Below are positions 6,209 through 7,659 of a DNA stretch of 21,391 bases, piece after piece. The position numbers and the translations under genes were made by a program. The notes below the pieces were generated by a model, which saw only the letters and a list, made by a program, of their open reading frames with translations, did no database searches and was not told the DNA's origin. The first letter of the stretch is position 1; each line of letters starts with the position of its first letter. This DNA comes from a virus (Duplodnaviria; Heunggongvirae; Uroviricota; Caudoviricetes): IMG/VR virus record IMGVR_UViG_2778261068_000006, positions 1-21,391 of that record, one strand, 5' to 3'.

Positions 6209-6713
6209 ACAGGTTTGTGAGGCTCTGGATGCCTGGGTATGCCGACCAGGAATGACACAGGAGCAGGCGACGATATTAATCACGGAAGCATTCTGGGCTC
6301 TGAAAGAACGCCCGAACATCGATGTTCAACGCGTCACGTTTGATGATGGCGCGGTTGATCAACGGGCGCTGGGCGTCAACCGGGTGAAGATATTCGAACG
6401 CTGGAAAGCTATCGACACCAGGGATAAGCGGGAAAAATTCACGGCGCTGATTCCGGCAATTATGGAGGCTATCCGGATCAGCGATTTCAGGTTGTATTGT
6501 GAAATTACTGACGGAAAAAGCATTACGTACATGATCGCCGGGTTAAACAAAGAATATGGCGATGTGGTGGAGTCCGGTCTGCTTTTGGCAGATCCTGCTG
6601 TTGTGGAGCGTGAGACTGACGAGCTTATAGAAAAAGCTATTGCTTTCAAGCATGCGTATCGTCAGCAATATCAACAAAAAGCCGGATGGAATTATGAGTC
6701 TTCTTTTTGCTGA
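6192..6713 (+). CDS. ydaT: YdaT-like protein (CII-like regulator/toxin family of Rac/CP-933P immunity regions)
   Basis: 173-aa ORF immediately after the cro-like gene; motif REKFTALIPAIMEAI resembles YdaT REKIQKLIPAILAIL; synteny repressor-cro-ydaT. Confidence 0.55.
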   Translation: MKITPEQVCEALDAWVCRPGMTQEQATILITEAFWALKERPNIDVQRVTFDDGAVDQRALGVNRVKIFERWKAIDTRDKREKFTALIPAIMEAIRISDFRLYCEITDGKSITYMIAGLNKEYGDVVESGLLLADPAVVERETDELIEKAIAFKHAYRQQYQQKAGWNYESSFC

Positions 6714-7659
6714 ACGCCCACTGGTTATTAACACGCAGCTGGCGATGAAAATTGGCCTGAATGAAGCCATTGTACTGCAGCAGCTGCATTACTGGTTGAG
6801 AGATACTAATTCCGGCATGGAATGTAACGGGGTTCGCTGGATTTATAACACAACAGAACAATGGCTGGAACAGTTCCCGTTCTGGTCAGAGTCAACGTTA
6901 AAACGCGCATTTGCAAGTCTGAAAACGCTGGGGCTTTTGCGTTGCGAAAAGCTCAACAAATCAAAGCGTGACATGACTAATTTTTACACGATTAATTACG
7001 AGAGTGAGCTTTTAGATGGTGGCAAAGTGAGCGAATCCATCAGGTCAAAATGCGCCGCTCCATCAGGTCAAAATGACACGATGGAAGAGGTCAAAATGGC
7101 ACGCTCCATTGGTTCAAAACGACCCAATGTCATCGGGTCAAAATGGCCTGATGATCTTACAGAGAATACAACAGAGATTACTACAGAGAATAAAAACACT
7201 TCTCGTCCGGAAGCTTCGCAACCGGACTCGCAGACGGCTGAACAGGATTTTTTAACCCGACACCCTGACGCGGTTGTGTTCAGTGCGAAAAAACGCCAGT
7301 GGGGAAGTCAGGAAGATTTGGCGTGCGCACAGTGGATCTGGGGACGAATCGTGAGTCTTTACGAGCAGGCTGCCAGCGATGATGGCGAGATCACGCGACC
7401 GAAAGAACCAAACTGGACCGCATGGGCCAATGATGTGCGCACAATGCGGATGCTGGATGGCAGAACTCACAGACAAATTTGCGAAATGTTTGGTCGGGTA
7501 CAGCGGGATCCATTCTGGGTAAAAAACGTCATGAGCCCGTCAAAGCTTCGTGAAAAATGGGATGAGCTGGTTATTCGTCTGGGGCGTCCGCCTGTACAGC
7601 GTTGTGTGAATCATATTTCTGAACCGGATACCGAAATTCCCCCAGGGTTCAGGGGGTAA
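6694..7659 (+). CDS. Replication initiation protein: N-terminal phage replisome-organiser-like DNA-binding domain, C-terminal DnaT (primosomal protein I)-like domain
   Basis: Start ATG 6694 preferred (MSLLFAERPL; the track ORF begins at 6640); C-terminus ...VNHISEPDTEIPPGFRG matches the E. coli DnaT C-terminus (...[16 protein letters not shown]); iteron array lies inside the gene. Confidence 0.7.
   Translation: MSLLFAERPLVINTQLAMKIGLNEAIVLQQLHYWLRDTNSGMECNGVRWIYNTTEQWLEQFPFWSESTLKRAFASLKTLGLLRCEKLNKSKRDMTNFYTINYESELLDGGKVSESIRSKCAAPSGQNDTMEEVKMARSIGSKRPNVIGSKWPDDLTENTTEITTENKNTSRPEASQPDSQTAEQDFLTRHPDAVVFSAKKRQWGSQEDLACAQWIWGRIVSLYEQAASDDGEITRPKEPNWTAWANDVRTMRMLDGRTHRQICEMFGRVQRDPFWVKNVMSPSKLREKWDELVIRLGRPPVQRCVNHISEPDTEIPPGFRG
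7036..7145. repeat. Iteron array, probable phage origin of replication: five copies of GGTCAAAATG-like repeat at about 23-bp spacing
   Basis: Copies at 7043-7052, 7066-7075, 7089-7098 (ggtcaaaatg), 7111-7121 (ggttcaaaacg), 7136-7145 (gggtcaaaatg); first two share tccatcaggtcaaaatg; followed by A-rich stretch 7150-7200; embedded in initiator gene as for lambda ori in O. Confidence 0.65.

Follow-up and report, generated by a model that had tools for sequence, protein, structure and literature searches.

A lambda-O-type initiator gene containing its presumed origin

We analysed the 21,391 nucleotides (nt) of IMG/VR virus record IMGVR_UViG_2778261068_000006, referred to below as the window, and in particular the gene at 6694-7659 on its plus strand. 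Homology identifies this gene as the lambda-O-type, origin-binding initiator of a Qin/mEp460-like lambdoid prophage, with a presumed origin inside its own coding sequence. Its product ends in 20 residues that match the C-terminus of the host primosomal protein DnaT, and no helicase loader was found in the window. The parts of the gene are as follows (aa, amino acids; AF2, AlphaFold2; pLDDT, predicted local distance difference test).

6694-7659, plus strand: lambda-O-type replication initiator gene, 321 aa and stop (PHROG match)
6694-7008, plus strand: predicted winged-helix N-terminal DNA-binding domain, aa about 8-105 (AF2 pLDDT about 80-90)
7021-7224, plus strand: disordered inter-domain linker, aa 110-177 (AF2 pLDDT < 50), overlapping the iterons
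7038-7153, no strand: five tandem 23-bp iterons with the core CATCRGGTCAAAATG, presumed initiator-binding sites (repeat search, Tandem Repeats Finder (TRF) and sequence reading)
7154-7200, no strand: A+T-rich, purine-skewed segment adjoining the iterons, presumed DNA-unwinding element
7225-7584, plus strand: C-terminal helical domain, aa 178-297 (AF2 pLDDT 80-97, all-helical), homologous to the lambda O / phi80 gp15 C-domain
7597-7656, plus strand: DnaT-type C-terminal tail, aa 302-321 (match to DnaT 160-179)

The open reading frame (ORF) starts with ATG at 6694, codes to 7656 and stops with TAA at 7657-7659, giving a protein of 321 aa with the N-terminus MSLLF, and both start and length are the same in its homologues. 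The initial annotation had called this protein a replication initiator, which is borne out by a match of aa 17-321 to phrog_391, 'replication initiation O-like', in PHROGs (E = 1.7e-95); matches to phrog_6493 and phrog_428 span aa 2-175. There are 4327 homologues, and the nearest protein cluster, at 97% identity, comes from Escherichia albertii. PhiR42_1 has a 95% identical 'DNA replication protein O', mEp460 carries the same gene, and the region shows 92-96% DNA identity to Qin/mEp460-type lambdoid prophages of E. coli. The protein goes by several names, being a 'hypothetical protein' in RefSeq and 'DNA replication protein O', 'replication protein O' or 'Primosomal protein I' in phage records, of which the last reflects a resemblance to DnaT noticed by annotation pipelines. 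Pfam at E <= 10 returned no family other than a spurious Slx4 match, and in particular no Phage_rep_O, RepA_N, DnaD or DnaT.

An AF2 model built on a 23-sequence alignment (mean pLDDT 72) divides the initiator into four parts, namely a winged-helix N-domain, a disordered linker, an all-helical C-domain and an unstructured tail. The best, though weak, Foldseek PDB matches of the N-domain were the N-domains of staphylococcal plasmid RepA initiators (4pql, 4pt7 and 5kbj; E = 7.5e-3 to 0.2, TM score 0.51-0.57 on the target), and by tblastn aa 3-139 were 38-46% identical to Staphylococcus phage proteins. Clustering of N-domains placed the window protein in a cluster apart from the lambda type. The C-domain is of lambda-O type: aa 173-294 showed about 39% identity to lambda O (E = 1e-18) and 35% to phi80 gp15 by tblastn, the range across comparisons with the C-terminal domains of these two proteins was 35-46%, and the alignment with the lambda O type has 25 invariant columns. 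AF2 assigned no secondary structure to the tail, and residues 300-307, leading into it, are disordered.

The presumed origin, 7038-7200, consists of the iterons and the AT-rich stretch and lies in the DNA that codes for the linker. The five iterons are spaced at 23/23/23/24 nt (TRF: period 23, 5.3 copies, score 74). The adjoining segment at 7154-7200 is 70% A+T, against 51% for the gene, whose most AT-rich 40-nt window begins at 7157, and it holds 2.8 copies of a 12-nt repeat, ACAGAGAATACA.

The resemblance to DnaT is a tail and not a domain

The last 20 residues of the initiator, QRCVNHISEPDTEIPPGFRG, align with E. coli DnaT 160-179 without a gap, C-terminus to C-terminus, with 14/20 identical. 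The initial annotation had described the last 17 as nearly matching the C-terminus of DnaT, and 13 of those 17 are indeed identical. The statistics of single sequences leave the match borderline: phmmer against the PDB DnaT chains 2ru8, 6aep and 9zbt gave E = 0.015-0.04, the NCBIfam DnaT model NF002770 gave E = 0.005 (16.4 bits, against a cut-off of 201 bits) over profile positions 160-179 only, and pairwise BLAST against the DnaT of MG1655 gave E = 1.4e-6. A DNA pattern back-translated from PDxxIPxGF[R/S]G, with TRR after it, found at least 120 matches in IMG/VR viral contigs. All 120 of the matches listed end at a true stop codon, and positions outside the pattern are conserved as well (R-19, N-16, I/V-14 and S-13), giving the consensus R-[DC]-[VP]-N-x-[IV]-S-x-P-D-x-x-I-P-x-G-F-R-G. 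Because every listed match ends at a stop and unconstrained positions are conserved, the comparison indicates that the tail match is nonetheless not due to chance. In INPHARED the tail ends the replication proteins of at least 48 records.

The resemblance does not continue into the preceding domain. Pfam (including PF17948), NCBIfam, hhalign and the Foldseek PDB matches all failed to place a DnaT C-terminal domain (CTD) in the C-domain of the initiator (for the 54-sequence family of that C-domain, hhalign put the probability of a match to the DnaT CTD at 0.1%), and homology of the C-domain to the DnaT domain was rejected on these negatives, with Pfam taken to E <= 10. Since only the tail matches, the window protein is not a DnaT family member. 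The DnaT-like C-terminus of the initial annotation thus shrinks to a tail of about 20 residues that PF17948 and the other DnaT models miss; what survives of its interpretation is an initiator with a real resemblance to DnaT and no phage loader, and what needs correcting is that the resemblance is a tail and that the domain before it is lambda-O-like.

Three other identities for the tail were considered by eye and set aside: a beta-clamp-binding motif (the Q is not conserved), a mimic of the SSB C-terminus (the F is not C-terminal) and a degron (no known degron pattern).

No helicase loader is encoded in the window

We searched all six-frame ORFs of the window by phmmer with reference proteins (DnaC of E. 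coli and four of its phage homologues, three P proteins and the DnaB-like P22 gp12) and found no DnaC-, P- or DnaB-like match. Strings with the Walker A pattern A/GxxxxGK[S/T] occurred in the six-frame scan only in short frames matching no family, and Pfam sees an ATPase in the terminase large subunit (18646-20403). Among the remaining ORFs of the window Pfam recognised an integrase, a RecE-like exonuclease, DUF968, RusA, Q, lysis and terminase proteins and no replication protein. The window runs from integrase to large terminase and therefore covers the whole early region. The initial annotation had seen no DnaC- or lambda-P-like ORF following the initiator, and had named a loader gene elsewhere in the prophage as the finding that would overturn its interpretation; no such gene was found either downstream or anywhere else among these ORFs. 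It had also noted a 140-aa hypothetical gene next, whose size is correct and which belongs to the DUF977/Ren-like family:

7660-7699, plus strand: conserved 40-nt spacer of the loader-less junction, from the initiator stop to the GTG start of DUF977
7700-8122, plus strand: DUF977 / LygF / Ren-like gene, 140 aa (Pfam PF06163, E = 3e-27; phrog_142 'Ren-like exclusion protein')

We considered whether DUF977 might be a hidden loader and rejected this, for it also occurs after DnaC-containing modules; because it is present downstream in both arrangements, it is not a substitute for DnaC.

The 40-nt spacer and the GTG start are nearly identical behind two initiator families ('KWDEL' and 'FENPW') in viral contigs, and the spacer differs from the DNA upstream of DUF977 in DnaC-containing modules. 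The same initiator-DUF977 junction occurs in Tritos, Evi, PhiR42_1 and dozens of viral contigs, and Tritos, Evi, PhiR42_1, Kati, SPN1S and PAT1 all have no adjacent loader. The complete 45.9-kb genome of mEp460 has this junction too, and phmmer with the same references found no loader or helicase in it. Lytic and lysogenic growth is reported as confirmed for 26 focus phages, of which mEp460 is one and was sequenced in that study (PMC9836094). Because the junction has its own conserved spacer and GTG start, common to two initiator families, these comparisons identify the loader-less arrangement as an established, working design and not as decay or a recent deletion.

As a separate matter, the sharing of the spacer at six loci (L017, L022, L024, L029, L040 and L043) points to a common recombination joint at the tail.

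Tail type partitions with loader type

The C-termini of 17 phages fall into two types, a DnaT type, ...R[DC]VNx[IV]SxPDxxIPxGFRG, and a lambda type, ...KPKLDLTNTDWIYGVxx, and for each type we counted the genes that come next in IMG/VR viral contigs. The counts given here are samples from related mosaic phages and carry no phylogenetic correction, and the two viral-contig samples share some contigs. For the DnaT-type tail (116 ORFs among the matches listed) the next gene is DnaC in 63, there is no loader in about 47 and P follows in none, the remaining six contigs being too short to judge. The loader-less group is made up of 44 ORFs with a recognised non-loader gene next and three more (L092, L128 and L135) without a loader within 3.5 kb; in 38 of the 44, DUF977 lies at +41 to +43 nt, as it does in the window. 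For the lambda-type tail (109 evaluable among the matches listed), P is next in 108, DnaC in none, and one has no loader.

Read in the reverse direction, the DnaT-type tail lies immediately upstream of about 78 of 79 phage DnaC genes, a set restricted to those at least 82% identical to Gifsy-2 DnaC; our script scored 75, and three of the four misses show the tail on inspection. These phage DnaC homologues begin at +0 to +7 nt from the stop of the initiator and share 48-50% identity with E. coli DnaC. One apparent case of the tail together with P (L374, Citrobacter sp. Cu233) was rejected: the initiator there is followed by a YdaW-like gene, and the P sequence, 0.9 kb downstream, is a fragment of 73 aa. 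That fragment resembles the C-terminus of phi80 gp14 and is probably a recombination scar.

The DnaT-type tail is modular. At least seven N-domain families and at least five unrelated pre-tail domains bear it, and N-domains of the lambda-O type are combined with both kinds of tail (72 lambda-type, 6 DnaT-type). Lambda O, phi80 gp15 and their relatives share the extreme tail KP[KD][LV]D[LF][TN]NTDW[IA]YGVxx (L217-L336; L013-L016), and this lambda-type tail may have the role of selecting P, as a counterpart to the DnaT-type tail. All of the 80 closest relatives of the window C-domain (at least 94% identity) carry the DnaT-type tail. DnaC is present in 48 of them, in most cases together with YdaW, and in 29 the initiator is followed at once by DUF977; those with the same N-domain type as the window divide evenly, 8 with DnaC and 8 without. 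To judge from these near-identical initiators, which occur both with and without it, phage DnaC is optional.

The tail on plasmid and host proteins

Two plasmid proteins also end in a DnaT-type tail: the IncU/IncX6 'replication initiator protein A' (NZ_KU302800, L340:1-1029), which ends ...NPGEPDSEIPPGFRG, and a 'replication initiation protein' of a Serratia plasmid (NZ_CP018921, L341:1646-2584). These replication initiator (Rep) proteins are mutually unrelated, and neither has a loader gene adjacent. In both plasmids the next gene codes for a similar product of about 150 aa, with hydrophobic stretches that make it look membrane-associated. Iteron Reps, among them pSC101 RepA, R6K pi and RK2 TrfA, have no loader of their own and recruit DnaB or DnaB-DnaC of the host, and we found no literature linking the helicase contacts of iteron Reps to a DnaT-like tail.

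With one genome taken per species, about 110 of the 120 pattern matches listed were in Enterobacterales. The few matches in other phyla are consistent with chance, and the tail thus appears to be confined to Enterobacterales. Of those matches, 76 are DnaT orthologues across Enterobacterales genera with the tail intact, and of the 72 that allowed a judgement 68 have DnaC next. In E. coli MG1655 (L338:2239-3518) dnaC begins 3 nt past the dnaT stop, with 2 nt in between, a spacing like that of the phage modules. Because the dnaT-dnaC spacing is alike, and because the SPN1S and PAT1 initiators hold a full DnaT CTD as well as the tail, the comparison suggests that dnaT-dnaC and the phage modules of tailed initiator and DnaC share ancestry.

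Proposed mechanism

The winged-helix N-domain would bind the five 23-bp iterons at 7038-7153, and by analogy with ori-lambda the duplex would then open at the adjoining AT-rich segment at 7154-7200. In lambda, the homologous C-domain and the conserved extreme tail, KPKLDLTNTDWIYGV, work with the phage loader P. In the window the lambda tail is replaced by a flexible 20-residue copy of the host DnaT tail, in a phage without a loader, and this copy would most likely serve as a docking peptide that brings host DnaB-DnaC to the opened origin, via the surface that normally recognises the tail of DnaT. Replication would then depend on host DnaC and not on a phage loader. An O-type initiator with an internal origin and a DnaT-type tail that recruits host DnaB-DnaC is in our judgement the best explanation, and we hold it with slightly better than even confidence.

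Within this explanation, gene context makes the tail the most likely recruiting element and DnaC, or the DnaB-DnaC complex bound by one subunit or the other, its most likely partner. Of the two targets named in the initial annotation, the PriA/PriB/DnaT restart primosome and DnaB-DnaC, the comparative data favour the second, because the tail partitions with DnaC-type loaders or with none, and never with P. The presence of the tail on unrelated scaffolds argues, in addition, for an external and conserved partner. A broader claim is that the motif of about 19 residues, R-D-V-N-x-[IV]-S-x-P-D-x-x-I-P-P-G-F-R-G, is a portable Enterobacterales dock for DnaC-type loading, common to DnaT, at least seven phage initiator families and at least two plasmid Rep families; we put this forward tentatively, and lean against it more than towards it.

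Several considerations weigh against recruitment of DnaB-DnaC by the tail. Gene neighbourhood is the only ground on which we infer the partner, the tail and loader counts come from related mosaic phages that are not phylogenetically independent, and the partition could mostly reflect the tie between the lambda tail and P, with the DnaT tail serving some other end. A DnaT-C-type domain has been reported beside a P-like partner (DopC/DopE, PMC5509034). A few tails carry 3-4 extra residues after the motif (Kp ST11phi3.2, P0127), and a free C-terminus may therefore not be required. Experiments on DnaT itself point elsewhere: the passage of PMC5314882 that summarises Szymanski 2013 describes the tail as disordered and needed for trimerisation, DnaT lacking residues 162-179 being a dimer in place of a trimer, and the binding of DnaT 84-153 to single-stranded DNA (ssDNA) is weaker and less cooperative than that of 84-179 (PMC4132743). 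Finally, a 2026 cryo-electron microscopy paper on the preprimosome proposes DnaT's N-terminal domain as the recruiter of DnaB/DnaC (PMC13377028).

Alternative explanations

The DnaT experiments just described are also the starting point for the first alternative, that the tail is a self-association or ssDNA-binding element for cooperative oligomerisation and that the helicase is recruited elsewhere, for example by the lambda-O-like C-domain acting on DnaB or DnaC. The change from trimer to dimer, the tighter and more cooperative binding of dT30 by DnaT 84-179 than by 84-153, and the need of initiators to oligomerise at iterons all fit this reading. However, the tail occurs on at least five unrelated preceding domains and in two plasmid Rep families, and because those domains are unrelated it cannot pack on a conserved domain of its own protein, so that only tail-tail or tail-DNA contacts would fit. 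It would also leave unexplained why the tail never occurs with P and why phage DnaC genes nearly always lie behind it. We consider this alternative unlikely.

Slightly less probable still is that the tail docks on PriA or PriB as DnaT does, DnaB then being loaded through PriA-PriB-DnaT-DnaC at the opened origin. The restart-primosome pathway is used by phiX174, ColE1-type plasmids and Mu, which counts in favour of such docking, as does the confinement of the tail to Enterobacterales, where DnaT occurs. DnaT moreover belongs to the preprimosome, where its C-terminal half docks on PriA and its linker binds PriB (PMC13377028). Yet the same paper places the PriA-DnaT interface in the CTD and the PriB contact in the acidic linker and does not mention the tail, and the window protein has neither that CTD nor that linker, the described contacts with PriA and PriB. 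Docking on PriA does not predict the coupling of the tail to DnaC (about 78 of 79) and its absence from P modules, and would still require host DnaT, PriB and DnaC.

That the module is instead a decayed remnant, from which DnaC (with YdaW) was deleted in a defective prophage incapable of autonomous replication, is very improbable and already largely refuted: the prophage is damaged nearby (split queH and insertion element, 8804-10654) and close initiator relatives hold DnaC and YdaW between initiator and DUF977, but the loader-less junction has its own spacer and GTG start in two initiator families, recurs in 38 and 29 viral contigs of two samples that share some contigs, and is found in complete phage genomes including mEp460, from the set with confirmed lytic and lysogenic cycles (PMC9836094).

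Implications

If host DnaB-DnaC is what the tail recruits, then a DnaT-like tail on a loader-less initiator may reveal the way in which the replicative helicase is brought in by DnaT-like proteins. The recruitment of DnaB-DnaC by PriA-PriB-DnaT is called unexplained in the 2026 paper (PMC13377028), which does not discuss the tail, and the literature that we found names no partner for it. Phage and plasmid initiators that share only the tail with DnaT also need DnaB loaded, and they bear on this open question. If the portable dock is real, the motif would be the missing link in the transfer of DnaB-DnaC from DnaT to the preprimosome, a phage cassette of 'initiator C-terminus plus loader' would have been domesticated as the dnaT-dnaC operon, and lambdoid initiators would pick their loader (P, DnaC or that of the host) by swapping the extreme tail.

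For the reading of lambdoid replication modules, we suggest the rule that the tail predicts the loader, and the tail also explains why pipelines label such proteins 'primosomal protein I' or 'hypothetical'. A prediction follows that widespread temperate phages of E. coli, E. albertii, Salmonella and Klebsiella, some Shiga toxin (Stx) phages included, need host or phage DnaC and not P. The comparisons also lend support to a phage origin of the dnaT-dnaC pair. No paper that we found treats the tail as a modular element or reports that it partitions by loader type. A review of phage replication modules by Weigel and Seitz from 2006 may describe initiator-only modules. Already known are the resemblance to DnaT, through annotations, and the fusion of an O-like protein to DnaT-C in DopC (Brezellec et al. 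2017, PMC5509034).

Other features of the window

Upstream of the initiator lie the genes with which the early-right operon opens, and the gene order in the window is repressor, cro, cII-like, initiator, Ren-like.

5493-6208, both strands: immunity region heading the early-right operon (Pfam HTH_3, P22_Cro)
5493-5900, minus strand: DicA-like repressor (Pfam)
5978-6208, plus strand: Cro/DicC-like regulator (Pfam)
6192-6713, plus strand: CII-like / YdaT-family gene (phrog_163 'CII-like transcriptional activator', E = 1.2e-41; Pfam YdaT_toxin)

The order of the repressor and Cro-like genes is as in PhiR42_1 and mEp460. The CII-like gene overlaps the start of the initiator by 20 nt, and in some database entries the two are fused in frame to give 448-aa proteins (P0004, P0007 and P0008).

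Downstream of DUF977 is a split and probably pseudogenic queH (epoxyqueuosine reductase, 8804-9387), in which Pfam QueH positions 1-24 correspond to 8804-8947 and 76-174 to 9001-9387. A 357-aa transposase with an rve integrase core and a helix-turn-helix (HTH), encoded on the minus strand at 9581-10654, marks an insertion sequence (IS) element between the broken queH and a hok locus, and this insertion shows damage to the prophage outside the replication module. In mEp460 (33822-35171) and Tritos (3764-5098) the place of the split queH and the IS element is taken by an ORF of 444-449 aa without a Pfam match, on the opposite strand just past DUF977. The hok locus holds an ORF for a Hok/Gef-family toxin at 10687-10881 (Pfam E = 1e-22), which is like Qin hokD; in relatives the locus is labelled MokW or HokD.

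A 298-aa ORF at 13968-14864, between the Q antiterminator and the holin, has a weak DUF5677 match and a GC content of 0.38 against about 0.50; it is moron-like and could be a defence or exclusion gene. On the minus strand, 1307-3787 codes for an 826-aa protein named 'exodeoxyribonuclease VIII' in relatives, with a C-terminal Rv2179c-like 3'-5' exoribonuclease domain (E = 5.6e-69) preceded by about 640 aa that are acidic, of low complexity and without a family match. The minus strand also codes for a YfbU-domain protein at 16987-17526, with the lysis genes on one side and the HNH/terminase genes on the other.

Comparison with known systems

The nearest known systems are lambda O and phi80 gp15. 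Like the window protein, they are encoded after a cII-like and before a ren-like gene and have two domains joined by a flexible linker, with iterons and an AT-rich element in the linker DNA. The origin lies inside the initiator gene in lambda, phi80 and P22 as the presumed origin does here, and the layout of the window iterons is like that of phi80, with its annotated gp15 sites inside gene 15, and of P22, with its origin inside gene 18. The lambda order cI-cro-cII-O-P-ren is paralleled in the window except that P is missing. Lambda O differs in having a Phage_rep_O N-domain, whereas the window N-domain is nearest in fold to RepA_N plasmid initiators, and in having the tail KPKLDLTNTDWIYGV with a P gene next, where the window has a DnaT-type tail and no P. 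The window protein is of the lambda-O kind but departs from lambda O in two respects, in the family of its N-domain and in having no P partner.

E. coli DnaT, with its conserved tail ...VSEPDxxIPPGFRG-COOH, matches the window protein over the last 20 residues in the same register. Its N-terminal domain, its acidic linker and its three-helix ssDNA-binding CTD (84-153) are all missing from the window protein, and DnaT joins PriA/PriB at forks (PMC13377028), whereas the window protein would be origin-specific.

The 'primosomal protein I' group (Rac YdaU, Gifsy-2 'O', POCJ13 and SPN1S) has the same tail and the same role in the early-right operon. Several of its members precede DnaC homologues, while SPN1S and PAT1 are loader-less. 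Before the tail, SPN1S and PAT1 have a genuine DnaT-CTD-like domain, 63% identical to DnaT 86-179; the YdaU-type 666R9 is 36% identical over DnaT 93-179 and the POCJ13 type 34% over DnaT 108-179. In contrast to these YdaU, POCJ13 and SPN1S types, the window family has a lambda-O-type C-domain and the tail only. The tail-bearing plasmid Reps differ in another way, with unrelated DNA-binding domains and origins outside the rep gene.

A chromosomal parallel is DopC/DopE of Cellvibrionales and Oceanospirillales, a domesticated O-like/P-like pair (Brezellec et al. 2017, PMC5509034). DopC likewise joins an O-like N-terminal HTH to a DnaT-C-terminal motif, but it is chromosomal, has neither iterons nor a lambda-O C-domain, and is paired with a P-like loader.

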